DNA of 56,001 nt from a virus (IMGVR_UViG_3300043413_000021:1-56001); one strand, 5' to 3'. Shown: positions 2,815-44,546, counted from the stretch's first letter. Made by a program: numbers and translations. The notes: generated by a model not told the origin, from the sequence alone.

Positions 2815-2821
2815 TTGTTTA

Positions 2822-3031: not shown

Positions 3032-3060
3032 TGTATTTTGTTTAATGTGAATAGTTTTTT

Positions 3061-3089: not shown

Positions 3090-3130
3090 GTCTTGCTTAA
3101 ATCCAAACGATTGCCTTATGACTGACCATA

Positions 3131-3138
3131 CAAAGTAA
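3131..3138 (-). promoter_or_regulatory. Bacteroidota -7 promoter-like element (variant TTACTTTG)
   Basis: One mismatch to TAnnTTTG. The same variant precedes the gene at 51225. Confidence 0.35.
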
Positions 3139-3249
3139 CCTAATATATTACATATTGAAAATTAAAAAAACCTTAAAATATTGAGCATAGGTATTGATAA
3201 AATTAATTATAAATACTTTAGCATCCTTAACTTTAAAAAATATAATTAT

Positions 3250-3456
3250 ATGTCAATAGAATTTTTAAACAGTGAGGGTACTGATAAAGAATTATTAGAG
3301 GGGTGGATAGAAAACCTACATTCATACCATTTAAAGCTAATGGAAGCCAATAATGGCTATTTAGAACTACAAAATAATATAGTCTTTAAAAATAGAGTAT
3401 CATCAATAGGTAAGGATATTATTGACCTACTTCAAGATATTAAAAATATCCAATAA
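3250..3456 (+). CDS. Hypothetical protein (likely start MSIEF at 3250)
   Basis: ATG after an AT-rich leader inside ORF 3181..3456; followed by a hairpin. Confidence 0.45.
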   Translation: MSIEFLNSEGTDKELLEGWIENLHSYHLKLMEANNGYLELQNNIVFKNRVSSIGKDIIDLLQDIKNIQ

Positions 3457-3480
3457 AAAAGTGAGCCATTAAGCTCACTT
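3455..3480 (-). terminator. Terminator hairpin (possibly bidirectional)
   Basis: aaaaaa-gtgagc-cattaa-gctcac-tt. Confidence 0.55.
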
Positions 3481-3529
3481 CCGAATAGGGTTACTCCATT
3501 CCATAACAAGGATAGCAACTAGCGAATTA

Positions 3530-3537
3530 CAAATATA
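3530..3537 (-). promoter_or_regulatory. Bacteroidota -7 promoter element TATATTTG
   Basis: Exact TAnnTTTG on the minus strand. Confidence 0.5.
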
Positions 3538-3549
3538 CTACTAAATTAC

Positions 3550-3581
3550 AAAAAAAACCCCCAATGTAGAAACATTAGGGG
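3550..3581 (-). terminator. Intrinsic terminator-like hairpin (leftward)
   Basis: Minus-strand RNA CCCCUAAUG-UUUCUA-CAUUGGGGG followed by U8. The loop is the same as in the 3068 hairpin. Confidence 0.6.
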
Positions 3582-3627
3582 TAAACAAAATTTGAATAAT
3601 CGAACCTATGAGGAAAACTATACGCAC

Positions 3628-3635
3628 CAAATATA
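3628..3635 (-). promoter_or_regulatory. Bacteroidota -7 promoter element TATATTTG
   Basis: Exact TAnnTTTG on the minus strand. Confidence 0.5.
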
Positions 3636-3827
3636 ATAAATAATTACGTTATTTAAAATATTTTCACCCATCCTAGTTTGTAATAACGAAAAACAACAAA
3701 TACACAATAAGAAACACGTTTAATATAGAAACAACCATCAGTATATACGGCATCCAATACCCCCAAAATATTACATACTTAATTATTTTTTTCATAATAT
3801 CATACTAAATTACTATAAAAACAAATC

Positions 3828-3835
3828 CAAAGTTA
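3828..3835 (-). promoter_or_regulatory. Bacteroidota -7 promoter element TAACTTTG
   Basis: Exact TAnnTTTG on the minus strand. Confidence 0.4.
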
Positions 3836-3836
3836 T

Positions 3837-4080
3837 CCCACCCCCAACCCCAACATTCTCCCCACCTTCCCCATCCCTAACCCCATCATCCACACCCTCA
3901 ACAAAAACCTCAACCTAAGCCTCCTCCTCATCCTCCTCCTCATCCTCATCCACAAACCTCAAACCATCATCATACTCCTCAAACCCATCCTCAAACACAT
4001 CCCCAGCCTCCACAAACACATCCTCATCCTCATCCTCAAGCCTAAGCCTCCGCATCAACCACAAACCCACCCTCAACCTC
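3837..4080. repeat. C/A-rich low-complexity tract (cctcat/cctc repeats, C3-C5 runs)
   Basis: The plus strand is almost devoid of G over about 240 bp in an AT-rich genome. Confidence 0.8.
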
Positions 4081-4094
4081 TTAGAGGAGGGCAT
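3915..4094 (-). CDS. Putative 59-aa highly acidic mini-protein (below the ORF-track cutoff)
   Basis: Hand translation: MPSSKRLRVGLWLMRRLRLEDEDEDVFVEAGDVFEDGFEEYDDGLRFVDEDEEEDEEEA*. It may be a by-product of the strand skew. Confidence 0.35.
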   Translation of the reverse strand: MPSSKRLRVGLWLMRRLRLEDEDEDVFVEAGDVFEDGFEEYDDGLRFVDEDEEEDEEEA

Positions 4095-4520
4095 ACACTA
4101 TACAGGTAGGTAGTGGCTTGGGTTTTCAAAATTGCTAACGGTGTACCCCTATTTTTTTGTTATTGATTGATTGATATTCTTGATAAGAATAATAGCTATC
4201 GGGTCCTAGGTATGTGGGGAAACTGCAATTGTATTTTTTTCATTATTTAAAAAGCAGGCGGCTGGTGGTGGTCTATTTATACTATAGCAGTTATTGGGGG
4301 ATATTAGGCTTATGGCTGGATTGTAATGGTTGTTTGACTAAGATATACTGTTAATGTTTTGTTATGGCTTATTTGGGGCTTATATTGGCTTATATTCAAT
4401 GCATTTTTTTTGGGGGGTATTGTGGGTATTGGACTTGAGCGTAATTATTTATTTGATTGGCTTGATTACTTGGTTGATTGGTTAGGTTGGTTAGATTGAT
4501 TGGTATAGAAGGGAAGGGGG

Positions 4521-4830
4521 GTAGAAAAATTAGAAAAATTAGAGTTTTGGGTATTAGAAAAATTAGAGTAATTAGAAAAATTAGAGTTTTAGGGGTTAGA
4601 ATAATTAGAATAATTAGAAAAATTAGAGTTCGGGATATTAGAAAAATTAGAAAAATTAGAAAAATTAGAGTTCGGGATATTAGAAAAATTAGAATAATTA
4701 GAAAAATTAGAGTTCGGGATATTAGAAAAATTAGAATAATTAGAAAAATTAAAATTTGAGGTGTTAGAAAAATTAGAAAAATTAGAAAAATTAAAATTTG
4801 AGGTGTTAGAAAAATTAGAATAATTAGAAT
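4521..4830 (+). repeat. Tandem array: 9-bp ATTAGAAAA/ATTAGAATA subunits in about 7 higher-order units of exactly 42 bp
   Basis: The variant spacer recurs at 4541, 4583, 4625, 4667, 4709, 4751 and 4793. Confidence 0.95.
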
Positions 4831-4862
4831 ATTGTTATATATTTGCATTCTAATTATTCTAA
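4815..4862 (+). promoter_or_regulatory. TATATTTG promoter (4838-4845) flanked by a perfect 16-bp inverted repeat of the array unit; operator-like
   Basis: ttagaataattagaat (4815-4830) and attctaattattctaa (4847-4862). Confidence 0.6.
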
Positions 4863-4873
4863 AAATTCTAATT

Positions 4874-5311
4874 ATGAAAGAGAAAATAAAAGGTATTGTA
4901 TTTGATTTTAAAAGTATTGGGTGGAGTTTTCAGCGAGTAGAAAAAGAACTAGGGTTTTCAAATGGAAGTATTGGCAAAGTTATTTTAGGTAAGTCTGGTA
5001 TATCTGAATTTAGATTTTTGCAGTTGGAAGAACTTTATAAAAAGCACTTCCCTGAAAAATTTACTATTAGTGAAGAAGTGAATAATTTGCCAGAAAATGA
5101 TGAAATTGAAAATATTGGTTTTAGAGCAGAACCCCCAAAAACGGAAATAATGAATAAGCAATGGTTTATTAATAATGCCCCAGATAGATACGAAGCACCA
5201 TATAAAATAGCAGACTTTAGAAAACTAATAAAAGAAAGCTATATCCTATCAAAAAAAGAATCCACCGAACTAATAGCAGCACTAGATAATGGACTTCTTT
5301 TTAAAGATTAA
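4874..5311 (+). CDS. XRE/Cro-like HTH DNA-binding protein (likely start MKEKI at 4874)
   Basis: WSFQRVEKELGFSNGSIGKVILGK fits an HTH_3-type pattern. Confidence 0.55.
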   Translation: MKEKIKGIVFDFKSIGWSFQRVEKELGFSNGSIGKVILGKSGISEFRFLQLEELYKKHFPEKFTISEEVNNLPENDEIENIGFRAEPPKTEIMNKQWFINNAPDRYEAPYKIADFRKLIKESYILSKKESTELIAALDNGLLFKD

Positions 5312-5389
5312 AATTACCTTAAAAATTCACATTATGTTGAAAACTACCAATAAAAATTATAATCTTTGCTTTGTTTATAAAACTAGATA

Positions 5390-5794
5390 ATGGCAGTATT
5401 AAATAAATTCAGTAATTCCATACTTGTTAATAAGTACAAGATTGCGAAGGAAACATTGGACTTGTTAGTGAATGAACTAAACAAGAGAGGCATACCAGTT
5501 GATAGTGTTAGTAATATCGTAGAAGTAAACCCTAGTGATGTATTTGCGTTACTGCCTGTTAAACGGCTAAGGAGTAGGGATAGAGATTATATGCAATCAC
5601 AGCACTTACTACGGTACATTCTATACCGTAGATGCAATATGACACTAAAAGAGATAGGCGTACAGACGGGTGGTTTTGACCATACAACTATAATAAATAG
5701 TATTAAGCGTGCGGGGCAGCTATTGGAAACAGACGATAGCTTTATATCTATGTACGAATCTGCTATCGATAAGCTAGGTAATCAAAAAAAATAA
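5390..5794 (+). CDS. Stand-alone DnaA C-terminal (domain IV) DNA-binding protein
   Basis: RSRDRDYMQSQHLLRYIL...MTLKEIGVQTGGFDHTTIINSIKR matches the DnaA domain IV signature (SLxEIG..FGGRDHTTV). Confidence 0.8.
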   Translation: MAVLNKFSNSILVNKYKIAKETLDLLVNELNKRGIPVDSVSNIVEVNPSDVFALLPVKRLRSRDRDYMQSQHLLRYILYRRCNMTLKEIGVQTGGFDHTTIINSIKRAGQLLETDDSFISMYESAIDKLGNQKK

Positions 5795-5831
5795 AAAAAT
5801 GAATCTAACAGGGGTCGCTAAAATGACCGAT

Positions 5832-5960
5832 AACGTCCCCGGCTTGCCGAAGTTGGTGAGTTCAAGGCTCAAATGCTCGGCAGCAAAATGTAAAAAAGAT
5901 GATTAGAAATATACAAACCATAGCGGATTCTACTGCACCAATTTTGGCAAACCCCATGTT
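5832..5960. repeat. attC-like hairpin A1
   Basis: AAC 5832; inner arms cttgccgaagttggtg / caccaattttggcaaa; GTT 5958. Confidence 0.8.
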
Positions 5961-6765
5961 GCCCGTTGGTGCGGTGAGTTTAAAACGCTTTATATCATTT
6001 AGCGGTGGCGTTGAAAGTACCACTATGTGTATTCTTTACGGTAAAGGTGCAACTGCTATATGGTGCGATACTGGTGCAGAACATGACGAAATGTACAAAA
6101 GAATTGATGATTGCGAAAAGGCATTAAAAGAAATTCATAAAGGCGATTTTGAATTGGTAAGATTAAAGGCTGATGTGAAAGTAAAAGGTAGTTGGGTTGA
6201 CAATTTAATTGATGCAATACTTGGATGGAAGTTTATGCCATCGCAGGGGCAAAGGTGGTGTACTGGTAAATTTAAAATCGCACCTATTGATAACTTTTTA
6301 AGTGAACAGGGCGAATGTGAGTTGCTTATTGGTTTGAACGCTGATGAAGAAACAAGGGAAGGGAATTGGGGATTAAAAGCCAATGTAAAATATGTTTATC
6401 AATTACAAGAAGATGGGCTTACCCGTGATGATTGTATTGAACTATTAAACCAATACGGGCTTAATCCTGACTTCCCGTTGTATATGAGCAGGGGTGGCTG
6501 CTTTATGTGTATTTACAAATCAATAGCAGAATATAAGGCTATGTACATTTTTGATAGAAAGACATTTGATAAAGTGTGGGCTATTGAGTTAAAAATACAA
6601 GACAAAAGGAAAAAATTATTTACCATATCTGTTAGCGGTAAGTCAATGACATGGATAGCGGCAGAGGTTGAAAGAGAGATACAAGGATGGGGTTTAGATT
6701 CGGTCAAAGGCTTTTACAAACAGATAGAACAAAAACAGGCTTGTGGTGCTTTCTGTCACAGGTAG
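5899..6765 (+). CDS. PAPS-reductase family (adenine-nucleotide alpha hydrolase) protein; cassette A1 cargo
   Basis: SFSGG PP-loop, DTGAE, RWCTGKFK, GLNADE and RGGCFMC motifs. Confidence 0.8.
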   Translation: MIRNIQTIADSTAPILANPMLPVGAVSLKRFISFSGGVESTTMCILYGKGATAIWCDTGAEHDEMYKRIDDCEKALKEIHKGDFELVRLKADVKVKGSWVDNLIDAILGWKFMPSQGQRWCTGKFKIAPIDNFLSEQGECELLIGLNADEETREGNWGLKANVKYVYQLQEDGLTRDDCIELLNQYGLNPDFPLYMSRGGCFMCIYKSIAEYKAMYIFDRKTFDKVWAIELKIQDKRKKLFTISVSGKSMTWIAAEVEREIQGWGLDSVKGFYKQIEQKQACGAFCHR

Positions 6766-6775
6766 CATGACGGGC

Positions 6776-6899
6776 AACGGTTTCGGGCTTTGCGAAGTGG
6801 CGGTTTTGAAAAATGTCAGCTTCAATATAGCACTGCTGTTCAATAGAATTACAAGGGTTCAAATTAGCACTTCACCCGCCATTTTGCAAAGCAAGTGTT
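6776..6899. repeat. attC-like hairpin A2
   Basis: AAC 6776; inner arms gctttgcgaagtggcgg / ccgccattttgcaaagc; GTT 6897. Confidence 0.8.
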
Positions 6900-6951
6900 A
6901 GCGGTTCGGGCTTCTCCGATTTTAGAAGTTCACAAATTAAATAACAAAAAA

Positions 6952-7449
6952 ATGTCAGAAACATTAACAGTAACTCGCCCGACTTGGAACGAAGAAATGC
7001 TAAAAGAACTTGCTCAAATCGTAGGTAAGCAAGTAAACGAATGGTGCAACGATGAAACACCGTTAGAAGATTGTATTGAAACAGCCGAAAAAGTGCTACA
7101 ATGGCACAGCAATGACAACGGATATGAACTTGCGAAAGAGTTTGATGATGAAGGTTTTTCACCCGATAGCGAACTGGTTGAAATTCTTGATAGTGTTTCT
7201 TATGATAGAAGTAAGGTTCAAGAAACATTTATTAAAAAATGGGTTGCTGATAATAACCTAAAACTTGAATTAGTTGAAGGTCAAAAAGTGATTGCAAAAC
7301 TTGTTCGTAAAGGCGAAGTTGAGGGTGAAATAGTAAAATTATATCCTGAAACTATGCAGTATGGTTTTTGGCACGAAGGTCAAGGATGCGAAAAAGGGGA
7401 AGGTCATACTTATGTCAATTTTGAAAACGTGGTGTCTGTCATAGCCTGA
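6952..7449 (+). CDS. Hypothetical acidic protein; cassette A2 cargo (ATG 6952, or GTG 6895 inside the attC arm)
   Basis: The ORF fills the cassette and has an A-rich leader before MSETL. Confidence 0.65.
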   Translation: MSETLTVTRPTWNEEMLKELAQIVGKQVNEWCNDETPLEDCIETAEKVLQWHSNDNGYELAKEFDDEGFSPDSELVEILDSVSYDRSKVQETFIKKWVADNNLKLELVEGQKVIAKLVRKGEVEGEIVKLYPETMQYGFWHEGQGCEKGEGHTYVNFENVVSVIA

Positions 7450-7454
7450 CCGAT

Positions 7455-7572
7455 AACGTTTTCGGGCTTGGTGAAGTAGCTAAACCCGAAGCTAAATAGA
7501 ATTACTAAGATTTAAAATTAAGAACGAATGATTGATATGATTACTAAACAGCCATTTTGCCAAACCAGTGTT
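7455..7572. repeat. attC-like hairpin A3
   Basis: AAC 7455; inner arms cttggtgaagtagct / agccattttgccaaa; GTT 7570. Confidence 0.75.
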
Positions 7573-7848
7573 AGTGGCAGTTATTATTTGGTTAGATATT
7601 GTGGTGGCTCGTATGATGACTATTATAGTGCTGTGGTTTTTGTTACCAATAAAAAATCAACTGCAACCAAATATTGCACTAAGTTTAATAAATTGCTTAA
7701 AAAATGGAAGAACCACTACAAGCAATTTGAAGCAGATAAATTTGGAATGAAATGGATTGCAGATGAACACATTGAAAAACACTTTGATAGGTGGAATAGT
7801 CTTGAAAATATAACCAAATGCTATTACGAAGAAGTGTCGTTTAGGTAA
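7528..7848 (+). CDS. Hypothetical protein; cassette A3 cargo (starts inside the hairpin loop)
   Basis: The ORF ends at the cassette's 3' arm. Confidence 0.6.
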   Translation: MIDMITKQPFCQTSVSGSYYLVRYCGGSYDDYYSAVVFVTNKKSTATKYCTKFNKLLKKWKNHYKQFEADKFGMKWIADEHIEKHFDRWNSLENITKCYYEEVSFR

Positions 7849-7856
7849 TTGCTACT

Positions 7857-7952
7857 AACGTTTTCGGGCTTGGTGTCTGTTATTTTGCCTTGCAGACACT
7901 TTAAGTTTACTACAAATTTAATAGGCAAAACAATAAGCACCAAACCGCTGTT
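7857..7952. repeat. attC-like hairpin A4 (close relative of B2)
   Basis: AAC 7857; inner arms cttggtgtctgttattttgcct / aggcaaaacaataagcaccaaa; GTT 7950. Confidence 0.85.
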
Positions 7953-7980
7953 AGTGGCTGGTGCGGTAAATTGAACTAAA

Positions 7981-8187
7981 ATGAGTAAAAAATTAAAAGC
8001 ATTAGCCTTAAGTTTTTTAGGCTGTATTATTTGGAGCGGACTTGTTTATATAGCAATAGCATTTTTGAAATCAGAATTAAACCCATTTATTTGGTCGCAA
8101 TTCACAAGAGGTGTAATGTTGTTTGTAATATCTTGCTATGTAGCATTTATTCCAGCAATAGTATTTGCTTTGAAAAACGAAATGTAG
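7981..8187 (+). CDS. Small two-TM membrane protein; cassette A4 cargo
   Basis: Two hydrophobic stretches in 68 aa. Confidence 0.6.
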   Translation: MSKKLKALALSFLGCIIWSGLVYIAIAFLKSELNPFIWSQFTRGVMLFVISCYVAFIPAIVFALKNEM

Positions 8188-8213
8188 CATCGCCACTAAC
8201 CGCACAAAAATAG

Positions 8214-8608
8214 ACACACACGATACAGATAGTTTTTCACAACTTAAAATAGTAACAATGGGAGTATTTTTTAAAGGGGGGCACATTAGCGGAAATTTCT
8301 GCAATATTACAAAAAGAAAACCTAAGGATTGGATTTATAATGGGTACAAAATAATTGTGCCTTACAAATTCAAGTGGAGGCATAAAATCGGTAAAGTTGA
8401 ATGCAATTGTAAAGTTTGCGAAGAACACTATCAGCCATGGTACGGCACAAGCTGGTTTCATTCTAAGGATTGCGCCCTGATGGAATACATTAATGCCCGC
8501 CCACAGATCTGTAACCTTGCGCAATATTACGAGAAAGATTTATCGCTAATCGCTCAAACTGACGAGTGTTAAGATTAACCACACACACGATACAGATAGT
8601 TTTTCACA
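8214..8608 (+). repeat. 28-bp perfect direct repeat (8214-8241 and 8581-8608) flanking ORF 8258-8572
   Basis: acacacacgatacagatagtttttcaca occurs twice. Confidence 0.9.
8258..8572 (+). CDS. Hypothetical Cys/His-rich protein (CNCKVC...H...C)
   Basis: ORF track; possible Zn-binding motif. Confidence 0.55.
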   Translation: MGVFFKGGHISGNFCNITKRKPKDWIYNGYKIIVPYKFKWRHKIGKVECNCKVCEEHYQPWYGTSWFHSKDCALMEYINARPQICNLAQYYEKDLSLIAQTDEC

Positions 8609-8798
8609 TTAATTCCATTTCAAGTTCATCTTGTGTAAGTGGGGTGCAATCTAACTTTATTATCATTTCATTTATGTTTAATAGTAAAGTACAATCGGGC
8701 ATTTTTTGTTGTTGTTTCGGTGGCAAATCTAGTTCATTACATAAACGTAAATATAATTGTTCATAGCTTTTTCTTCGGTTGTGTTTATTAGTTGTCAT
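8604..8798 (-). CDS. Hypothetical protein
   Basis: ATG with an A-rich leader; divergent from 8868. Confidence 0.4.
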   Translation of the reverse strand: MTTNKHNRRKSYEQLYLRLCNELDLPPKQQQKMPDCTLLLNINEMIIKLDCTPLTQDELEMELM

Positions 8799-8867
8799 AT
8801 TTTGTAATTAATGTTGCTAAAATAATTATTTTTAATCGGATTAAATTTATAATTAAAAGTTAAAAAA

Positions 8868-9059
8868 ATGATACAAAAAGTAGTTAAAAAAATTTGTGTA
8901 AACTTTGCGGAGTACATTGTAGTGAATGGATGGTCAGTAACGGATGGGTTTAAATGGATAAGACTATCCCATATACAAGATGCTCCAATAACTACTGAAG
9001 AACTTTTTGAACTTTTTAACAAAGAAGAAAGAAAAAGAATAAAAAAAGAAGTACCTTAG
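8868..9059 (+). CDS. Hypothetical protein
   Basis: ATG after an A-rich leader. Confidence 0.5.
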   Translation: MIQKVVKKICVNFAEYIVVNGWSVTDGFKWIRLSHIQDAPITTEELFELFNKEERKRIKKEVP

Positions 9060-9215
9060 CACTATATTAGTTTTCTGAATGAAGGGAGTCTTTCAGAGAA
9101 TTTAATGGTTGTATCAACCAGCCCCTCTTTGTCAACTCCCGATAAATTGGGGCATTTTTTTATAATAAAACAAAATTTAATTTAATAAAAAAATATTTGT
9201 TTTAAATAATTTAAT

Positions 9216-9223
9216 TAAGTTTG
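9216..9223 (+). promoter_or_regulatory. Bacteroidota promoter TAAGTTTG (with upstream TTTG at 9196)
   Basis: Consensus match about 20 bp upstream of the HTH gene. Confidence 0.55.
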
Positions 9224-9243
9224 TAATCCATAAAAATAAAAAT

Positions 9244-9444
9244 ATGAGTAAGATAAAAAAAGTAGATAATCTAAGACAGATTATTGATGAAGCTTTAGAT
9301 GGTAGAACTTATAAATGGTTGTGTGAAAAAACTGGCATCCATTCCACCCAAATGTCGTATATAGTTAATGGATTAAAGCCTAGTAAGAATAATCTATCTA
9401 AAATAGTTAAAGTATTAAAATTAGACCCTTCCTTGTTGGAATAG
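9244..9444 (+). CDS. Cro/XRE-family HTH regulator
   Basis: 66 aa; RTYKWLCEKTGIHSTQMSYIVNGLKPS is a typical HTH_3 pattern. Confidence 0.75.
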   Translation: MSKIKKVDNLRQIIDEALDGRTYKWLCEKTGIHSTQMSYIVNGLKPSKNNLSKIVKVLKLDPSLLE

Positions 9445-9458
9445 AGGTCTTTTTTTTT
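9423..9458 (+). terminator. Terminator-like hairpin after the HTH gene
   Basis: agacc...ggtct followed by a T-tract. Confidence 0.4.
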
Positions 9459-9824
9459 CTAAATAGGGTTCGTTATCAATTCCTACCCCGCTTTAGTTTT
9501 CAGATTTAAAAAGCAAATAGTTGAATTTTGTTACATATCCATATATATAAATCAAAAAGTGTTGGCAATGTTGTCCCCTTATAACCAACGACCTAAAAGA
9601 TTTAATAAAAAACCAGATTTTAATACTCGTTAGGATAGGCGAAGGAAAGGATAAGGTAGCAATGAAAAAGGGCATCTGAATTAACAAACACCCTTTTTAC
9701 CCCTAAAAGATAAGTAGATTACTACTTTGATAAAAAACATTATATCAAAGATAAGGAATAAACATAATCTTTTAGGGATAGAAAGGGGGTATTGTGTATA
9801 AAATAACAAAAAATAACAAAAAAA

Positions 9825-10160
9825 ATGGCAAAAAAATTAAAAAAAACTCCCGAATTGCCTTTTAAAAGTGAAAATTTTGAAATAATATGGAAAGAATATA
9901 TTACTCATAGGAGAGAGAAAGGAGCATCAAACTATACTCCAACTGGCTTAAATAGGGTGTTTAACGCTCTAATTAGGGATAGTTTAAATTCAGAAGAAGT
10001 TGCTATAAAAATAATAGAGCAGTCATTGGAAAAAAATTGGACAGGACTTTTCCCACTTAAAAATAATATAAAACATGGACAAACAACCACAACTTATTGG
10101 CAGCGTATTGGAATCGGAGGGATTAATATTGAAGGGAGTGCAAAAGAATCTCCGTTATAG
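9825..10160 (+). CDS. Replication-initiator-like protein (C-terminal-type domain only)
   Basis: FEIIWKEYITHRREKG..YTPTG...IIEQSLEKNWTGLFPLK resembles the C-terminus of phage replisome organisers; lies directly upstream of the DnaC-like ATPase. Confidence 0.5.
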   Translation: MAKKLKKTPELPFKSENFEIIWKEYITHRREKGASNYTPTGLNRVFNALIRDSLNSEEVAIKIIEQSLEKNWTGLFPLKNNIKHGQTTTTYWQRIGIGGINIEGSAKESPL

Positions 10161-10944
10161 TGAATGGGATTGGGTTGAGCTTACGGAAGATGAAAAAATA
10201 GATGCACTAGGGTATAGGCGTATGCTTAAGGGTACAGACCTTAAAAAAAGGCAAAAGGAAGAATACAATAGGCTTAAAATAGCGAAGCTTCAATCTCAAT
10301 GGACTTATGATGAATTAAGGGCTGAAATACTAAGTAGGGCTTTATCTGAACCATTTGAATTTGTAATAGATGAACATAATGAAAGGATAATACACCTTCT
10401 TTGTCTTTACTTTTCGGGGGATGAAAGGTTTAATAGTGAAAAAATAACATACCATAATGGGGAAGAAAGAAGCCTAAATTTAAGTAAGGGTATTGGTCTA
10501 ATATCTTCAAAAAAGGGTACTGGGAAGTCAATTTTAATGAAGTTATTTCAGCAAAACAAAAGAAGCCCATATCTAAAAATAGACACTAAGGATATTGCAT
10601 CCGAGTATAAAAAGAAAGGGGATGCTTGTATTGAAACATACTCAAACTTACTTTATATCCCACCTAATCCAACATTTTTTTGTTTCCAAAAAATAGGCAT
10701 TTGCTTTGACGAATTGGGGTATGAACTACCTAAAAATAACTGGGGAGATAAGTCCGATGTAATGGCAGATGTTCTATTTAATGTGTATAAGCAAAATCAA
10801 TATAGCGGGGATTATAGCAACTTTCATTTTACAAGTAACCTTTCAGGTCAAGACTTTGAAGGAAGATACGGGGATAGAATAAAAGATAGAATGAGAGAAA
10901 TGTTTAATGTTATTATTGTTTCAGGCGATAGTAGAAGAAAGTAA
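10075..10944 (+). CDS. DnaC/IstB-like P-loop ATPase (helicase-loader-like)
   Basis: Walker A KGTGKS, Walker B ICFDELG, FTSNL and YGDRIKDRMREMFN. Confidence 0.75.
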   Translation: MDKQPQLIGSVLESEGLILKGVQKNLRYSEWDWVELTEDEKIDALGYRRMLKGTDLKKRQKEEYNRLKIAKLQSQWTYDELRAEILSRALSEPFEFVIDEHNERIIHLLCLYFSGDERFNSEKITYHNGEERSLNLSKGIGLISSKKGTGKSILMKLFQQNKRSPYLKIDTKDIASEYKKKGDACIETYSNLLYIPPNPTFFCFQKIGICFDELGYELPKNNWGDKSDVMADVLFNVYKQNQYSGDYSNFHFTSNLSGQDFEGRYGDRIKDRMREMFNVIIVSGDSRRK

Positions 10945-10955
10945 AATAAAATAAA

Positions 10956-11141
10956 ATGAAAAACGAATATAAAGTAGGAACTAAAAAATGTACTAGGTGC
11001 AAGAAAAATGTAGATGTTAATAGGTTCTACAAAAAAATAAGTTCATCTGATGGGCTAAGTTACCATTGTTTTGATTGTGAAAAAATAATGAAAAAAGAAA
11101 GAAGAATAAAAATGATGGAGGGTATAATAATAGCTTTTTAA
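10956..11141 (+). CDS. Small zinc-ribbon protein
   Basis: CTRC...F...DGL..HCFDC. Confidence 0.55.
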   Translation: MKNEYKVGTKKCTRCKKNVDVNRFYKKISSSDGLSYHCFDCEKIMKKERRIKMMEGIIIAF

Positions 11142-11191
11142 GGTAATTTTAATTTAGTATTTCAGAAAATATATTAAACTTTGCAATACTT

Positions 11192-11452
11192 ATGTTTGGT
11201 TTCAAAAAAGCAAAAAATATGAATTTAAGGGAACAGTTAGAAAAATTCATTTCATTATTTGGGTATAAAAGATGTTTCATGTGGGATGATATGATTACTT
11301 ATAAAATAGTTCATAGTTTATCAAAAGAAGTAATAAGGCAAGCAGAAGAAATAATACAAGATTACAATTTATATTTACTTGAAGTTCAAGTATTGGAAGG
11401 TAGTTCCGTTTTTTCTGAAATGCTAATTATTAGACAAAAAATATCTTACTAA
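11192..11452 (+). CDS. Hypothetical protein
   Basis: ORF track; lies in an operon. Confidence 0.5.
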   Translation: MFGFKKAKNMNLREQLEKFISLFGYKRCFMWDDMITYKIVHSLSKEVIRQAEEIIQDYNLYLLEVQVLEGSSVFSEMLIIRQKISY

Positions 11453-11454
11453 AA

Positions 11455-11964
11455 ATGTACAATAGCACTATAATATCCAAAAAAAAGAAACTTTTATGTG
11501 GTTGTTTTGATTACAATTTCAGTAAGGGAAGGTGTAAGATGCACGCTACAATAGAAAGCGCAAATAAAAGAATCGAAAAGCAAAAACAAATATCAACGGT
11601 TACCGTAAAAACGAAAGTTCAAGATACTGAACCAAAAGAAATGCAGCAATTTTGGGAGTATGCCAAAAAAGTTATAGAACAAAAACCTTATTGTTGGGAG
11701 TGTGGAGATTTTATTTCTCCAAAAGATTATAGGGCTTCCACTGCCCACATATTTCCCAAATCAATATTTCCTTCAATAGCATCCAATAAATATAATTTCC
11801 TAGTACTTGGTAATAGATGCGGATGCCATAACCAAAGCCATAGATTAGATACATTTAGTAAAATGAGAATATTTCCCACCGCAATAAATAGATTTATGAA
11901 ATTCGCAGAAGAAATAAAAGAAAACCACAAATACAAAAATACTTTTATTGAATTATTAAAATGA
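11455..11964 (+). CDS. NinG/HNH-like endonuclease
   Basis: CWECG...AHIFPKS...N...CGCHN beta-beta-alpha-Me pattern. Confidence 0.6.
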   Translation: MYNSTIISKKKKLLCGCFDYNFSKGRCKMHATIESANKRIEKQKQISTVTVKTKVQDTEPKEMQQFWEYAKKVIEQKPYCWECGDFISPKDYRASTAHIFPKSIFPSIASNKYNFLVLGNRCGCHNQSHRLDTFSKMRIFPTAINRFMKFAEEIKENHKYKNTFIELLK

Positions 11965-12050
11965 AAAAAATCAAATAACGTAAAGATCGGAATGGCACAA
12001 AACCCCATGTTACCTTCTGCCTTATTTGGTCGGACACAAACAAAAATAAT

Positions 12051-12803
12051 ATGGCTAAAAAGTCAAACATACAATGGACGGATGCAACTTGGAATATCGC
12101 CAGAGGTTGCACAAAAGTAGATGAAGATTGCAAATTCTGTTATATGTATAGGGATAGTTTTGATAATACAAGGTATAACCCTTTGCAAGTAACAAAGACA
12201 AAAACAGTTTTCAATTTGCCTTTGAAAATTAAAGAACCTTCAAAGATTTTCACTTCATCATTAACCGATGTATTTCACCCCGATTGCGATGCTTTCAGAA
12301 ATGAAATGTGGGATATTATTCGTAAATGCCCACAGCATACTTTTCAGCTACTTACAAAAAGACCTGAAAGAATTATAGATAATACTCCATCTGATTTATT
12401 ACAAGCTGATAACATTTGGTTTGGAACAAGTGTAGGAAGTGAAAAAGGCAAACAAAGAATTTACGATTTATTGAAAGTTGATTGCAAAACTCGTTTTATT
12501 TCCTTTGAACCTTTACACGAAAGAGTAGATATGAATTTGGATTTACTCGACTTGCTTAAAATTCATTGGGCAATTATTGGTGGTGAAAGTGGCAATGAAA
12601 CTGGTAAATATCGTTACAGACCTTGTAAGGTTGAATGGATGGAGGAACTTGTAAAAGACCTTACTGCAACCACAGCAATATTTGTCAAACAGATGGGAAC
12701 TCATTTAGCAAAGGAGTTAAATATGTCTGATAGGCACGGTGGCAACATTGATGAATTTCCGTCCACCTTGAAAATCAGGGAGTTTCCCAAAGGTAGCAGG
12801 TAA
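12051..12803 (+). CDS. DUF5131 (phage Gp37/Gp68) radical-SAM-like protein; cassette B1 cargo
   Basis: IQWTDATWN, GCTKVDEDCKFCY, SLTDVFH, FQLLTKRPER, SFEPL, IIGGESG and FVKQMG. Confidence 0.9.
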   Translation: MAKKSNIQWTDATWNIARGCTKVDEDCKFCYMYRDSFDNTRYNPLQVTKTKTVFNLPLKIKEPSKIFTSSLTDVFHPDCDAFRNEMWDIIRKCPQHTFQLLTKRPERIIDNTPSDLLQADNIWFGTSVGSEKGKQRIYDLLKVDCKTRFISFEPLHERVDMNLDLLDLLKIHWAIIGGESGNETGKYRYRPCKVEWMEELVKDLTATTAIFVKQMGTHLAKELNMSDRHGGNIDEFPSTLKIREFPKGSR

Positions 12804-12896
12804 CGGTTTGCGGCTTGGTGTCTGTTATTTTGCCTTGCAGACATTTCAAGCCTTAGATAAAATTTATAGGCAAAATAATAGCACCAAACCGCTGTT
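12802..12896. repeat. attC-like hairpin B2 (close relative of A4)
   Basis: Inner arms cttggtgtctgttattttgcct / aggcaaaataatagcaccaaa. Confidence 0.85.
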
Positions 12897-12924
12897 AGTG
12901 GCTGGTGCGGTAAATTAAACGAAA

Positions 12925-13194
12925 ATGACAAACGAAGAACAAATTAAAGAGCCTAAAGATGATTGGAAATTAAAATCACTTACGATTGAATTTAAAAAGG
13001 GATTTTCATTTGAAAACTCACAAGACAGATACGAGGGAAGTATTAAGTTTGAAAATGGAGAGAGTGAAAGTTTCCAATTCAAAGTAAGACCCGATATGGC
13101 TGATGACTATATTAAACTGATAAGCGAAGATATTGTTAAGTGTGCCGAATCTTTAGGCTCTCGATTGATAGAGTCTTTAGGATTACGGAAGTAG
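12925..13194 (+). CDS. Hypothetical protein; cassette B2 cargo
   Basis: The ORF fills the cassette from leader to 3' arm. Confidence 0.65.
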   Translation: MTNEEQIKEPKDDWKLKSLTIEFKKGFSFENSQDRYEGSIKFENGESESFQFKVRPDMADDYIKLISEDIVKCAESLGSRLIESLGLRK

Positions 13195-13205
13195 CACTTG
13201 CCACT

Positions 13206-13324
13206 AACGGTAGCGGTTTATGCAGGTGGGAATTGATGCACTTCCATTCGCAAACAACCGATGCCGAATAGAATTAATTAGTTGAGCATTTAGCGTCCAG
13301 CCCACTTGAATAAACCGCCTTGTT
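13206..13324. repeat. attC-like hairpin B3
   Basis: Inner arms gcggtttatgcaggtggg / cccacttgaataaaccgc. Confidence 0.8.
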
Positions 13325-13351
13325 GGCTGCTGTACGGTAAAAAATGCCAAG

Positions 13352-13389
13352 TTCTACTTTTTGTCAGTAGTTAATCAAGTTAAACAACC
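13352..13389 (+). repeat. 38-bp leader element, copy 1 (35/38 identical to 15254-15291)
   Basis: ttctactttttgtcagtagttaatcaagttaaacaacc. Confidence 0.8.
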
Positions 13390-13418
13390 GTCATTTTTAA
13401 ACTGTCAAACAATAATTT

Positions 13419-13655
13419 ATGAATATACAACCGAAAGAAAAAGCGCAAGATTTATGGCTAACTTATTACGAGTTATTGCCAGATGGAATATACTCAAATG
13501 AAGCTGCTAAAATTGAGGCTAAAAAGTTTGCTACAATAGCTGTCAATGAAGTTTTGGAAGCTACTAAAGAAGCTGTGTTACCTATGGGCGGTGCTACTGG
13601 TTATGATTATGATAGCTACTGGTTAGATGTCAAGTCTGAAATTGAAAAGCTGTAG
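13419..13655 (+). CDS. Hypothetical protein; cassette B3 cargo
   Basis: PKEKAQDL...A.IAVNEVL...YWLDVKSEIEKL; the ORF ends at the 3' arm. Confidence 0.65.
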   Translation: MNIQPKEKAQDLWLTYYELLPDGIYSNEAAKIEAKKFATIAVNEVLEATKEAVLPMGGATGYDYDSYWLDVKSEIEKL

Positions 13656-13665
13656 TATAGCAGCC

Positions 13666-13743
13666 AACGGATTGGGTATTTACGCAGGTGGCTTTTGTGG
13701 GTTGGCTTGTGTGTCGGCAAGCCACTTGAGTAAATACCTTGTT
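13666..13743. repeat. attC-like hairpin B4
   Basis: Inner arms ggtatttacgcaggtggctt / aagccacttgagtaaatacc. Confidence 0.8.
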
Positions 13744-13788
13744 AGCCGTTCGTTCTTTTTCGATTACAATTTAAAAAAAATTAGTAAA

Positions 13789-14208
13789 ATGTCAAAAAAT
13801 ATAGATTTATTAAAGCAAAAATTAAATGCAAAAACTTCGGAAGAGTTGTTTGGTATTACAGAGCAACCTCCACAACAATGTCCAAACATTGATAATGTCA
13901 TTCGTGATTTAGAAGGCACTTGTAAGCAAATTCAAAGTATAGCAAATGATATAAAACGAACTGATAATATAGACGATATTCCAAGTTTAGCTGGCGATAT
14001 TGATTGGTATTCAAGTGATATTGATAAGTCAAAAGAGTTAAATGAGTTGAGAAAGCAAATTGAGTTAGTTCGTGGTTGGGGAGAAGAATGGAAAAATTTA
14101 GCAAAATCTTTATTCAATAATATGAGTAAAGAGCAAGATATAGTACACCATTTTTCAAGTGAGTTTCAAATTAAATATGACGAGTTATGCGGTGTCGTTT
14201 TAGAATGA
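13789..14208 (+). CDS. Hypothetical helical protein; cassette B4 cargo (likely start MSKNI at 13789)
   Basis: The track ORF starting at 13627 runs through the hairpin. The ATG at 13789 has an A-rich leader. Confidence 0.6.
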   Translation: MSKNIDLLKQKLNAKTSEELFGITEQPPQQCPNIDNVIRDLEGTCKQIQSIANDIKRTDNIDDIPSLAGDIDWYSSDIDKSKELNELRKQIELVRGWGEEWKNLAKSLFNNMSKEQDIVHHFSSEFQIKYDELCGVVLE

Positions 14209-14213
14209 CGGCT

Positions 14214-14339
14214 AACGTCCAGCGGCTTTGCGAAGGCAAGGGATTAGAAGCACTAAACTTTAAAATTAGTACAAATGATTGATAGAAATACAAATGTTCA
14301 AATAATCGGTGAAGCCCTTGCTTTTGCAAAACCGATGTT
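14214..14339. repeat. attC-like hairpin B5
   Basis: Inner arms ctttgcgaaggcaaggg / cccttgcttttgcaaaa. Confidence 0.8.
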
Positions 14340-14556
14340 AGCAGCCGTTTATGTTGCTACTTGGCAAGAAGAAGGTGATGAACCATATCAGATACGGTCA
14401 GACGAATGTAAACCAAAAGATAAAGCAGGTGATTCTGATTGGTGGTTTGATGAAGAAAGTCTAATGTTTAGAAGATATTGGTCGTACCACCATGAAGAAT
14501 ATGGAAATCAATATGTTCATGATGAAGTTGATGCAGTCTTATTAAATGGCTGCTAA
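14275..14556 (+). CDS. Hypothetical acidic protein; cassette B5 cargo (starts inside the hairpin loop)
   Basis: The stop TAA is the TAAC of the 3' arm. Confidence 0.6.
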   Translation: MIDRNTNVQIIGEALAFAKPMLAAVYVATWQEEGDEPYQIRSDECKPKDKAGDSDWWFDEESLMFRRYWSYHHEEYGNQYVHDEVDAVLLNGC

Positions 14557-14574
14557 CACTTAGATTGACGAAAT

Positions 14575-14830
14575 ATGGATATGCAATACATTGAAAAAGA
14601 GAAAGATAACTATCTACTAAAATTGAATGGGGAAGATTATTTTTTCTCAAAATTATCACTATACAAATCAACACGTTTTCTACCTATAAAACCAATTTTG
14701 AACAATGGATCTTTGTCTTGGAATATTGGTAGTGAACTACCCACCCACAGCAAAGCTGATGAGTGGGCTTTCGCTCCCTCTATGTAAAAAAATATCTTAC
14801 AAACAAATTAAAAATTTAATACTAAAATGA
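14575..14830 (+). pseudogene. Small gene interrupted by a 52-bp insertion
   Basis: Removing 14732-14783 restores ...WNIGSKKISYKQIKNLILK* with its TGA overlapping the ssb ATG (ATGA). Confidence 0.55.
14732..14783 (+). mobile_element. Miniature IS200/IS605-type end-hairpin remnant
   Basis: gtgaactacccacccacagcaaagctgatgagtgggctttcgctccctctat; GC-rich palindrome beginning GTGAACTACCC. Confidence 0.55.
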
Positions 14831-15252
14831 TAAAAACAGAAGTAATAGGTCATTTAGGAAATGATGCAGTAGTAAATAACGTTAACGGTAAAAGTGTAGT
14901 TAACTTTTCGGTAGCCCATACAGAAAAATATAAAGATTCAAATGGAGTGGAAACAACAAACACTATTTGGGTTTCATGTTCTTATTGGGCTGAAAGAATA
15001 GGTGTAGCAACTTATCTTAAAAGGGGTACACAAGTTTATGTTGAGGGGCAACCTTCGTTAAAAACATACGTGGATAATCAAAATAAAACACAAGCTCAAC
15101 TAAGCTTAAGAGTAAGAAACATACAATTACTTGGAGGGGCAAAACAAGAGCAGGTACAACCACAGCAAAATAATTATCCATCCAATCCACAAGATGTATT
15201 AACCGATAAACAAAAAGAGTTTTTAGAGCAAAAAGATGATTTGCCTTTTTAA
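14827..15252 (+). CDS. ssb: Single-stranded DNA-binding protein
   Basis: IGHLGNDA, FSVA, YLKRGTQVYVEG and the C-terminal DDLPF tail. Confidence 0.95.
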   Translation: MIKTEVIGHLGNDAVVNNVNGKSVVNFSVAHTEKYKDSNGVETTNTIWVSCSYWAERIGVATYLKRGTQVYVEGQPSLKTYVDNQNKTQAQLSLRVRNIQLLGGAKQEQVQPQQNNYPSNPQDVLTDKQKEFLEQKDDLPF

Positions 15253-15253
15253 A

Positions 15254-15291
15254 TTCTACTTTTTGTGGGTAGTTAATCAAGTCAAACAACC
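15254..15291 (+). repeat. 38-bp leader element, copy 2
   Basis: ttctactttttgtgggtagttaatcaagtcaaacaacc. Confidence 0.8.
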
Positions 15292-15323
15292 CTCAACCTT
15301 TTTTTAAAACAAAAAAAATAAAA

Positions 15324-15647
15324 ATGGCTAAACTATCTAAACCTGTAAATGATTGGGCTAGGTGCTTAATTATATTACATAGTAATTACATGGCTGGGGT
15401 ATCTATGGCAAAAGTGCTTAATGTACTCCCACATTTTTACAAGTTTCAAACAAGACTAAAGGAGGTTGAAAAAGCCCACCCTAAACTAAAAATATCAAGA
15501 ACTATAATACCTTTTAAAAATGCTAAATTAAATAAAAACGGTTACTTTACACAATACACACTACTAAGCCCACCATCATACGTTATTAACCTTTACAATA
15601 AAATAAATAAAGAGGGACTTTATGGAGAAAAAAAAGATAAAAAATGA
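15324..15647 (+). CDS. Hypothetical basic protein
   Basis: ORF track; A-rich leader. Confidence 0.55.
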   Translation: MAKLSKPVNDWARCLIILHSNYMAGVSMAKVLNVLPHFYKFQTRLKEVEKAHPKLKISRTIIPFKNAKLNKNGYFTQYTLLSPPSYVINLYNKINKEGLYGEKKDKK

Positions 15648-15912
15648 TTTGCCAATAGAGTGGACTGGTAAGGCAAAGGAAATAGGCATGATTGAATCTG
15701 AACTCATGCACATAGTTTATGATTGCTCCATCCCAACATTAGAAGAAAGAAAAAATAAGGCACAAATATTTTATACTGCAAGGGAGGTTTCTGAACATTT
15801 AGGCGTAAAAATAGATACGGTATTTAGAAATAGAATAGCTAGTAAAAGAATAAAAGCATTAAATGGGAAGATGTATGCCGTTAGGGTGGCAAAAAATAAC
15901 CTAAACCAATAA
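15622..15912 (+). CDS. Hypothetical protein with a NUMOD1/HTH-like motif
   Basis: FYTAREVSEHLGVKIDTV. Confidence 0.45.
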   Translation: MEKKKIKNDLPIEWTGKAKEIGMIESELMHIVYDCSIPTLEERKNKAQIFYTAREVSEHLGVKIDTVFRNRIASKRIKALNGKMYAVRVAKNNLNQ

Positions 15913-15967
15913 CCGTAAACCAAATAAAGAATTAACTTTAATTAAATTTTTAGCAAAAGCATTAAAT

Positions 15968-16645
15968 ATGACATTAAAAGCAGCGCATGGGAGGTGTTTA
16001 CTTAAATGCGATTTGGATTTTAAAAACAACCATACTTTTAAAGATGGTACTACAATAAGGTTAGAAAGGAACGTTGAAAACCTTAATTATAGGGAAACGA
16101 TGCCAGTTCAAGCCGAATGTATAGAAGAAAATGGGGTGGTTCCGTTTGGAGCAATTGTATTATGCCATCATAATTCATTCCACCCAACTAATCAAGTATT
16201 TAATAGTTTATCTTTAAGTGGTGAAGAAATAGCTAGTGGGGTATCTATTTATTCCATCCCATTATCGGAATGCTTCTTGTGGAAAACAAAAGATATGAAG
16301 GAATGGGATGGGGTTAAGGGGTATGCCATTGCAGAAAGGGTATTTCAGCCGTATAATGGGATTATAGAAGGGATACTCCCAACTAAAATAAAAGATTCTC
16401 TTTATGTAAAAACTGGGTACAATAAAGGGAAAGTAGTAAGAACACTAAAATCATGCGATTATGAAATAGTGTTTAGAAACGAAGAAGGACAAGAGGAAAG
16501 AATAATTCGATTTCGCACGTCTTACCCAGAGCATAATGAAAGAGAAGAAGTGCTATTCATTGATGAAGAACTAACAAAAAAAGTTCTAAAAGGGGAGATA
16601 CTTGTAGGGCTAAATGAAAACAATTGTGGTATAATTTTTAAATAA
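15968..16645 (+). CDS. Hypothetical protein at the head of the packaging cluster
   Basis: 225 aa, GAIVLCHHN motif, two genes upstream of the terminase. Confidence 0.6.
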   Translation: MTLKAAHGRCLLKCDLDFKNNHTFKDGTTIRLERNVENLNYRETMPVQAECIEENGVVPFGAIVLCHHNSFHPTNQVFNSLSLSGEEIASGVSIYSIPLSECFLWKTKDMKEWDGVKGYAIAERVFQPYNGIIEGILPTKIKDSLYVKTGYNKGKVVRTLKSCDYEIVFRNEEGQEERIIRFRTSYPEHNEREEVLFIDEELTKKVLKGEILVGLNENNCGIIFK

Positions 16646-16649
16646 AAAA

Positions 16650-17003
16650 ATGAAAGAATTGGAAGATAATATTAACATACTTCAAAAAAGAATTAAATTC
16701 TTAGATGAGCAATTAAATCAAGCAAATGAAAAAATAGATTCTTATGAAACAGGCGATAGAAGTTTATATTACTCTATTCAAAGAAAAATGTCCGAGATGT
16801 CTAAGATGTTAAATAGCCAAAATTTAAACAATATTGATATATCAAGTAAATCAGATGCTACATTTGAAAGAATTTTTAAATTATTAGAAAAAATGGAGGC
16901 TATTTCAAATGCATCAACTTCACTTGCTAAATCATTAGGACTTAAAAAAGATTCAGAATCAAAAGGCAATTTTACCGATAGTTTAGCAGAAGATAGAGCA
17001 TAA
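16650..17003 (+). CDS. Possible terminase small subunit
   Basis: Helical 117-aa protein coupled to the large terminase start. Position-based call only. Confidence 0.35.
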   Translation: MKELEDNINILQKRIKFLDEQLNQANEKIDSYETGDRSLYYSIQRKMSEMSKMLNSQNLNNIDISSKSDATFERIFKLLEKMEAISNASTSLAKSLGLKKDSESKGNFTDSLAEDRA

Positions 17004-44543: not shown

Positions 44544-44546
44544 TAA

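Follow-up and report, generated by a model that had tools for sequence, protein, structure and literature searches.

Cassette arrays of a probable integron-type recombination system in Bacteroidota and their phages

Introduction

The virus record IMGVR_UViG_3300043413_000021:1-56001 carries two arrays in which single open reading frames (ORFs) are separated by imperfect hairpins bounded by AAC and GTT. The record is the whole IMG/VR entry (56,001 bp, linear, estimated completeness 80) and is referred to as the window in the following. The locus raises the question which system delimits these genes and by what means they could be moved. A first-pass annotation, made from the sequence alone, had described a phage-borne integron-like cassette system. 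Based on site structure, covarying cassette ends, cassette boundaries, distribution and recombinase position, we consider it likely that both arrays consist of cassettes belonging to a site-specific recombination system of the integron type, widespread among Bacteroidota and their phages.

Integrons are the textbook gene-capture platform of bacteria. In the survey with IntegronFinder 2.0 (Néron 2022), Bacteroidetes were a group with only In0 elements and one complete integron, in Salinibacter (PMC9024848), and a 2024 preprint cites Bacteroidota among the clades earlier found without any integrons (10.1101/2024.07.02.601686). The intI_Cterm profile represents the IntI-specific insertion near patch III, and recombinases near attC sites that lack it were not treated as IntI by Cury 2016 (PMC4889954).

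Results

Hairpin sites and cassette units

Nine single-ORF units in two arrays, A (5832-8200) and B (11977-14557), are delimited in the window by eight complete AAC...GTT hairpins (78-129 nt), a truncated copy and two half-sites at the array ends. The hairpins and units listed by the first-pass annotation are thereby confirmed with coordinates and folds, and the lengths fit the range of about 57-141 nt that it had quoted for attC sites. The sites are as follows (R1 is the covariance model described below):

5832-5960 (129 nt), + strand: site A0, complete hairpin, first of array A, part of unit U1; R1 78.2 bits (training sequence)
6776-6899 (124 nt), + strand: site A1, complete hairpin, unit U2
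7455-7572 (118 nt), + strand: site A2, complete hairpin, unit U3
7857-7952 (96 nt), + strand: site A3, complete hairpin, unit U4
8186-8200, + strand: half-site of array A, AAC only, recombinase-proximal, attI-like end
11977-12011 (AAC 11977-11979, GTT 12009-12011), + strand: site B0, truncated hairpin, distal end of array B
12802-12896 (95 nt), + strand: site B1, complete hairpin, unit U6
13206-13324 (119 nt), + strand: site B2, complete hairpin, unit U7
13666-13743 (78 nt), + strand: site B3, complete hairpin, unit U8
14214-14339 (126 nt), + strand: site B4, complete hairpin, unit U9
14543-14557, + strand: half-site of array B, AAC only, attI-like end

All eight complete sites are imperfect palindromes running from AAC to GTT and share one fold, in which a short AAC/GTT box is followed by an asymmetric internal loop, a long imperfect stem and a variable loop. 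The internal loop comprises about 6 nt on one side versus 2 nt on the other, the cut-side arm is about 4 nt longer, and 10-20 nt of the arms are common to different units. For the covariance model R1, the eight window sites were aligned with ten sites of Flavobacterium phage filifjonk9-1 (n=18). In this alignment 90.4% of the cells were paired, nine of the 12 stem pairs showed compensatory changes, and none of 500 shuffles equalled the pairing. Matches of R1 in the window are expected by construction; within the 56 kb only the eight sites were found, all on the + strand, with the next best match at an E-value of 0.53. Independent support comes from two untrained sites of locus L001 and from 259 sites in the first 80 viral loci. 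For 150 sites from 27 viral loci outside the training set, aligned by fitting to R1 itself, 96.8% of the cells were paired and 10 of the 12 stem pairs showed compensatory changes. The AAC/GTT pairs were kept in 148-150 of these 150 sites, and G.U-type pairs were frequent. Rfam gave no match in the window at the gathering threshold.

Some ORFs start within the hairpin loops, in each case with ATGATT (window positions 5899, 7528 and 14275; L001 positions 4075 and 4926), and ATGATTGA is present in four of these five cases (A2, B4 and the two L001 sites). These ORFs run through the 3' arm, so that the site itself encodes about 15-20 N-terminal residues.

On the phage coding strand, the cassette layout is hairpin, GTT plus a 12-nt box, ORF, and a complementary 12-nt box plus AAC. 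The nine units are:

5835..6778, + strand: U1, hairpin A0 and PAPS-reductase-like ORF (5899 or 5957 to 6765), end box ...GGGCAAC
6779..7457, + strand: U2, hairpin A1 and ORF of unknown function (6895 or 6952 to 7449)
7458..7859, + strand: U3, hairpin A2 and ORF 7528-7848, start within the hairpin loop
7860..8200, + strand: U4, hairpin A3 and ORF 7981-8187, then half-site 8186-8200
11980..12804, + strand: U5, truncated hairpin B0 and DUF5131 ORF 12051-12803
12805..13208, + strand: U6, hairpin B1 and ORF 12925-13194
13209..13668, + strand: U7, hairpin B2 and ORF 13419-13655
13669..14216, + strand: U8, hairpin B3 and ORF 13789-14208
14217..14557, + strand: U9, hairpin B4 and loop-starting ORF 14275-14556, then half-site 14543-14557

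The U1 ORF matched Pfam PF01507 (E 1.1e-5) and phrog_424 (3.6e-32), and the U5 ORF was assigned to DUF5131 by PF07505 at 3.4e-53.

Complementarity of the cassette ends

In all nine window units the first 15 nt (from GTT) complement the last 15 nt (to AAC) of the same unit. At positions 4-15, the units U1 to U9 showed 6, 7, 9, 6, 10, 10, 10, 7 and 11 Watson-Crick matches of 12, and the mean self pairing amounted to 8.44/12 compared to 4.5 for the 72 non-self pairs. None of 100,000 permutations reached a sum as high as the observed one. The self-matching ends described by the first-pass annotation thus hold for nine of nine units, and the comparison of self with shuffled pairing, which it had posed as a refuting test, gave clearly higher values for self pairing. 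Its span of 13-16 bp is replaced by 15 positions, of which position 11 is a conserved G.T.

The same rule was determined for 131 cassettes from the window, L001 and the 27 viral loci, for which self pairing was 8.47/11, pairing of boxes at the same hairpin 4.18 and pairing of random pairs 4.32. The outer helix comprises exactly 15 positions in this set, and position 11 showed G.T in 112 of the 131 cassettes and a Watson-Crick pair in none. The complementarity recurs in 123 bacterial and 45 further viral cassettes, with G.T at position 11 in 88 and 34 of them. Each outer box complements the partner of its own cassette, not the boxes of its array neighbours. A MITE-like (miniature inverted-repeat transposable element) hairpin insertion, whose own outer boxes would pair, was rejected, since pairing at the same hairpin lies at the random level (4.18 versus 4.32).

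Cassette boundaries

A block of 1551 bp is present in filifjonk9-1 and absent from phage mumin6-1, and it equals three units of hairpin, ORF and end box. A three-way alignment places the switch between the two phages within the TAAC|GTT at the hairpin 5' side. On the bacterial chromosome CP058707.1 (genome G002), two paralogous cassettes share 87% identity between AAC|G and the following AAC, and the similarity does not continue outside. In the window, the stretch 7453-7859 with U3 shares 85% identity with the unrelated viral contig L100 (8041-7635), and the similarity extends from ATAAC|G to CACTAAC|, i.e. to both AACs, between unrelated flanks. Since these junctions lie at AAC on the hairpin 5' side, each hairpin belongs to the ORF after it. 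The opposite polarity, in which the hairpin would follow its ORF and GTT would be the cut site, had been given by the first-pass annotation and was first adopted here as well, and was then dropped on account of the filifjonk9-1/mumin6-1, G002 and U3/L100 comparisons, all of which put the boundary at AAC. The idea that the units are movable accessory-gene cassettes was borne out by the phage and U3/L100 boundaries, and the comparison of gain and loss between related phages, which the annotation had proposed, yielded the 1551-bp difference joined inside TAAC|GTT.

The U5 region 12038-12816 is about 90% identical to viral contigs L253 and L254, for which no other window matches were reported at E 1e-8. 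The 3' limit of U5 lies at TAAC|G in the comparison with L253; in L254 the similarity stops earlier (12787) and no site follows. For U8, the similarity to contig L093 stops at AAC 14216. In addition, assembled metagenome contigs from four freshwater runs of two studies, one of which is probably the window's source, were compared with the window; the parts that they leave uncovered carry no information. A contig from another metagenome study spans 12794-13208 with U6 and carries foreign sequence on both sides, and an identical foreign flank joins at 12794 (runs X1 and X2) and at 13657 (run X3). By hand count, 11 of the 24 loose contig ends listed lie within 12 nt of an AAC, compared to about 0.7 expected if evenly distributed. 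The contig joint 12724-9229 fits no proposed reading. Another joint, 6800-7543, was given no weight, as one side comprises 25 nt in one contig and is out of register. Altogether, the comparisons support the reading of the units as discrete mobile cassettes with boundaries in the conserved triplet.

Distribution and cargo

A distant blastn search with 8 kb of the region returned 40 records, all of Flavobacterium phages, which matched only at the hairpins A2, A3 and B1. The hairpin of site A2 shares about 90% identity with one found in Muminvirus phages, and in Muminvirus and relatives the same hairpin arrays are placed between methyltransferase genes. A family search with one degenerate pattern, covering a site subfamily, gave matches in viral contigs (at least 119) and in bacterial contigs (at least 120). 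Among the matches listed, nearly all contigs are labelled Bacteroidota, and the bacterial taxa include Flavobacterium, Pedobacter, Chitinophagaceae, Chryseobacterium, Saprospiraceae and Cyclobacteriaceae. Other labels were observed for L146, L160, L188, L194, L199, L211 and L213, namely Saccharimonadales, Pseudidiomarina (795 nt), Proteobacteria, Brevifollis, Ignavibacteriae, Christensenellaceae and Melioribacteraceae; these site carriers may reflect binning errors or genuine spread.

The covariance-model scan of phage and host DNA suggested by the first-pass annotation was carried out with R1 and found sites in viral and bacterial loci, with 99 sites across 42 bacterial loci. Their occurrence is patchy: in the family of Flavobacterium sp. 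LMO8 they were present in 14 of the 101 genomes sampled, and LMO8 itself has at least 30 sites. Chromosome CP058707.1 carries at least 148 sites on one strand between 3.486 and 3.983 Mb (about 500 kb), a count that is a lower bound since 150 candidates were scored. This array resembles a super-integron in size, with a recombinase gene at its end.

The cargo differs between the loci. Locus L134, a Sphingobacteriales metagenome-assembled genome (MAG), has ordinary bacterial cargo in its cassettes (cytochrome b561, cupins, HxlR, HNH and PLD), the window has the PAPS-reductase-like and DUF5131 genes, and related phages have DNA methyltransferases. The phage cargo suggests a shuffling of accessory and anti-restriction genes.

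Recombinase at the array end

Wherever sites and a homologue of the linked recombinase occurred together (19 of 19 loci, 6 viral and 13 bacterial), the recombinase is located downstream of every site, at the array end formed by the half-site. On CP058707.1 a tyrosine recombinase gene follows the array at 3.9858-3.9866 Mb. L134, F. qiangtangense and a Chitinophagaceae MAG likewise have a recombinase gene behind the sites of one contig, and in Flavobacterium sp. LMO8 (next to the site) and F. fontis the recombinase shares a contig with a site. The idea that the hosts lack any suitable enzyme was dropped in view of the CP058707.1 gene and the 19 loci. In L134 the terminal half-site pairs with the last full site, including the G.T.

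Two further observations concern L134. Directly after the terminal AAC and before the recombinase gene, an imperfect palindrome of the type GTATATATGCCTGAC...GTCAGACATATAC was found at 5880-5915, which is a candidate attI-like binding site. The recombinase ORF 6058-7083 ends without the IYTH tyrosine motif kept by its homologues, and this copy in the MAG may be broken.

Among the NCBIfam models, NF040815 (XerA-type) was the best and TIGR02249 (IntI) the next match for 11 of 11 array-linked enzymes. They skip TIGR02249 positions ~180-236, the part with the IntI-specific insertion, and the bacterial enzymes have an N-terminal extension of about 80-130 residues. In a tree, 14 array-linked enzymes (11 bacterial, 3 viral) grouped with 3 canonical IntI and apart from 7 housekeeping Xer-like proteins (support 100/99). 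Canonical IntI, i.e. TIGR02249 over its cut-off, was found in none of the 101 sampled genomes of the LMO8 family and in none of 5 array-bearing Bacteroidota genomes. As a control, the same search was positive in 17 of 41 genomes of a gammaproteobacterial order, so that it does detect canonical IntI. The first-pass annotation had proposed an IntI-like tyrosine recombinase of the host or encoded outside the window. An IntI-related enzyme at the array ends of 19 of 19 loci agrees with this proposal, while the absence of the IntI-specific insertion and of canonical IntI (0/101 and 0/5) does not.

Strand and orientation

By thermodynamic prediction, the more stable fold is that of the model strand, whose 5' end carries AA|C, for 117 of 150 viral sites and for 192 of 252 bacterial ones. 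This is also the ORF strand in 208 of 217 viral intervals, but in bacteria 135 of 143 intervals have their ORFs on the other strand. Since the better-folding strand is constant although the ORF strand differs, the asymmetry follows the DNA site and not transcription, which argues against a purely RNA role. The bacterial arrays have the classical order of recombinase end, ORF and its site. The phage cassettes are inverted, with the site first and the ORF reading towards the recombinase end.

For comparison, the sites of a canonical array beside IntI (G151) are 115 nt long, their loop is symmetric (3/3), and their extra bases are on the arm away from the G|TT cut, the cut side being assigned by the literature rule G|TT (PMC9892861). 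Hence the hairpin geometry of the family described here is the mirror image of the canonical attC examined. In the canonical locus L284 a strict hairpin scan for RYYYAAC...GTTRRRY gave no candidates, and a repeat search then found the array.

Other features of the window

The window encodes a number of replication and recombination genes, among them SSB, an O-like protein, a DnaC-like protein (10075-10944) and a resolvase-like protein. Besides these, a DnaA-C helix-turn-helix protein, a Cro/C1-type helix-turn-helix protein and the following phage recombination gene were found:

564-1277: YqaJ-like exonuclease

No tRNA genes were found in the 56,001 bp. Megablast of 14500-39499 against phage records gave no matches, indicating no close cultured relative of the window phage. 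Relatives were also sought via the DnaC-like protein, with 11 pattern matches and none confirmed.

The ORF 8258-8572 (104 aa, no family) lies between the two copies of a perfect 28-nt direct repeat (8214-8241 and 8581-8608), immediately 3' of the half-site that ends array A, and may be another type of insertion at the insertion end of this array. Within a stretch of about 940 bp (3456-4396) that has no ORF of at least 60 aa and in which the GC skew switches from -0.36 to +0.41, positions 3848-4078 form a C-rich repeat of the type CCTCATCCTCCT with a period of 12 nt. At 42001-46000 the GC content is 0.40-0.47 compared to 0.30-0.34 in the surroundings; this part falls in the large ORFs 41973-44543 and 44547-45905.

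Discussion

Interpretation and proposed mechanism

The integron-like reading of the window is right in substance, with corrections regarding the cassette polarity, the kind of enzyme and the novelty of phage-borne cassettes. In the mechanism that we propose, the coding strand would fold as single-stranded DNA, and an IntI-related tyrosine recombinase without the IntI insertion would cut AA|C on the 5' side of the hairpin. In the excised circle, the two cassette ends would make a 15-bp helix with the conserved G.T at position 11. Insertion would take place at the array end bearing the AAC-only half-site, which would act in an attI-like manner. For the window arrays the enzyme could be supplied by a Flavobacteria-type host, by a co-infecting phage or by the missing ~20% of the genome; a recombinase acting in trans is plausible.

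A more far-reaching reading is put forward tentatively and with slightly less than even confidence. In this case, the arrays would belong to an unrecognised large integron-like system of Bacteroidota and their phages, with its own lineage of IntI-related recombinases without the insertion, a mirrored hairpin, a 15-bp helix with G.T and arrays of about 500 kb. The inverted cassettes of the phages, with an ORF that begins in the hairpin and is read away from it, would form a separate pool of accessory and anti-restriction genes, served in trans by host or phage recombinases.

Several points weigh against an integron-type system. Regarding the window, no tyrosine recombinase is encoded in the 56 kb, which confirms the lack of an integrase stated by the first-pass annotation. 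Four of the nine window cassettes pair at merely 6-7 of 12 positions and are weak individually, and the 5' similarity of the DUF5131 unit to L253 and L254 begins about 13 nt before the ATG, off the site boundary. No circle or junction read was seen, the contigs used being assembled ones that are incapable of showing circles, and assembly may partly cause the contig breaks near repeats. Regarding the enzymes, the bacterial loci comprise only 8 kb, which limits the sense of "adjacent". All 11 array-linked enzymes scored below the curated cut-offs (NF040815 160-216 versus 220 bits, TIGR02249 94-204 versus 265), so that the XerA-type equivalog cut-off of 220 bits was reached by none of them. About 42 residues of VchIntIA are missing (between 185 and 242, 16 residues replace 58). 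The recombinase tree has few members, does not resolve the inner order and came with long-branch warnings. Finally, the extra hairpin nucleotides lie on the cut-side arm, while the canonical G151 array has them on the far arm, and R1 sites were found in none of 5 genomes carrying canonical IntI.

Alternative explanations

Phage-borne integron cassettes are not new as such. Qi 2023 found 17 clusters of attC sites lacking an integrase (CALINs) among 10,705 phage genomes, one of them in a Bacteroidota phage, the Polaribacter phage P12002L, where it lies between methyltransferase genes; of the two attC sites assayed from it in E. coli, one was recombined by IntI1 (PMC9892861). The novelty that the first-pass annotation had left for a search therefore does not extend to phage cassettes in general. 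The available main text of this paper does not mention Flavobacterium phages, and its Supplementary Table S1 may list further phage CALINs. The window arrays could be a classical integron remnant (CALIN) on whose attC sites a canonical host IntI acts, a model put forward for other phage CALINs. The IntI1 result for P12002L speaks for this, as does the finding that R1 matches the same intergenic places of that phage (39116-39251 with E 1e-4; 30002-30062, 32217-32287 and 30903-30961 with E 0.25-0.46) and that its array likewise terminates in an AAC-only half-site. Nonetheless, we regard a remnant of this kind as unlikely. TIGR02249 exceeded its cut-off in none of the 101 and 5 genomes, although the control gave 17 of 41, R1 found no sites in the 5 genomes with IntI, the asymmetry of the hairpin is mirrored, and the enzyme at the array end has no IntI insertion.

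It is also conceivable that the hairpins are merely homology patches, along which general or phage homologous recombination swaps genes between co-infecting phages, similar to the promoter stem-loop cassettes of T4-type phages and with no site-specific enzyme involved. Such a process could make use of the YqaJ-like exonuclease (564-1277), the SSB and the resolvase-like protein of the window and of the 10-20 nt shared by the hairpin arms of different units, and one metagenome contig joins 12818 to 7476, within two hairpin 5' arms. The junctions, however, lie at AAC itself rather than along the conserved arms. Moreover, homologous recombination leaves the covariation of 15 end positions with a fixed G.T unexplained, as well as the constant position of the recombinase at one array end (19 of 19 loci), and the same sites delimit bacterial cargo in chromosomes. 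Altogether, this makes it quite improbable that homology is all there is to the hairpins.

A function of the hairpins mainly as RNA elements between phage early genes (terminators, processing or translation-start elements), with the link to gene boundaries as a by-product, is very improbable. The better-folding strand is the coding strand in phages, G.U-type pairs are frequent, the window ORFs at 5899, 7528 and 14275 start in loops with ATGATT, and ATGATTGA recurs in A2, B4 and the two L001 sites, all of which would suit an RNA role. In bacteria, however, the ORFs lie on the opposite strand (135/143), yet the same strand folds better (192/252) and keeps the G.T. No Rfam family matched, the stems are not followed by a T-run, and an RNA role leaves the AAC boundaries and the link to a recombinase unexplained. 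A secondary role of the hairpins in expression could still exist in phages.

A reading of the units as small non-autonomous transposons that end in 15-bp inverted repeats can practically be dismissed: the first and last 15 nt of the units are indeed inverted repeats, but their variable positions differ among units and covary inside a unit, unlike a shared transposase site, the units abut without target duplications and have one hairpin at one end only, and Pfam and PHROGs identified no transposase among the 30 ORFs tested, all in window 2-19057.

Significance

If the proposed integron-type system is real, a major phylum and its phages hold a parallel cassette platform that was missed by standard tools, and a concrete route of gene exchange between phage and host would be at hand. 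It would also provide a natural experiment in the recognition of folded DNA by a tyrosine recombinase without the IntI domain. In the Baltic Flavobacterium phages, for which Nilsson 2020 linked the methyltransferase content to plating efficiency, it would account for the variable methyltransferase sets that track host range (PMC7077304); hairpins and an integrase are unmentioned in the available part of that study. The wider Bacteroidota system looks undescribed in the literature searched, in which no paper on it was found, most subscription journals being outside the coverage. The window offers a clean example with nine cassettes.

Comparison with known systems

The closest phage counterpart is the CALIN of P12002L, which likewise has single genes between AAC...GTT hairpins in a Bacteroidota phage, no integrase beside them and methyltransferase cargo (PMC9892861). 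Its sites, however, are mostly short (59-71 nt) and weak R1 matches, whereas the family of the window occurs in at least 119 viral contigs.

In T4-type phages, promoter stem-loop cassettes are thought to work via homologous recombination and carry promoters. The arrays described here resemble them in having conserved intergenic stem-loops around exchangeable phage accessory genes, and differ from them in the exact boundaries, the covarying ends and the linked tyrosine recombinase.

Regarding the enzyme, IntI (TIGR02249) and XerA (NF040815) are the best NCBIfam matches, and the array-linked recombinases tree with canonical IntI and not with Xer-like proteins of the same genomes. They are unlike both in the sub-cut-off scores of 11 of 11 enzymes, in the about 42 residues fewer than VchIntIA and in the N-terminal extension of the bacterial members.

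Like sedentary chromosomal integrons, with G151 as the example, the system has short cassettes lined up in one direction in long arrays, a site at the cassette end that faces away from the recombinase, the cut within a conserved triplet, a cassette-specific pairing of outer boxes, the recombinase at the insertion end and a patchy occurrence (14 of 101 genomes). In contrast to these integrons, the linked recombinase has no IntI insertion and mostly reads in the direction of the cassettes (9 of 13 bacterial and 6 of 6 viral loci), the outer helix comprises 15 bp with a fixed G.T, and the internal loop has about 6 versus 2 nt instead of the 3/3 of G151. Canonical arrays are invisible to R1, and it is in the family described here that the extra bases lie on the cut-side arm.

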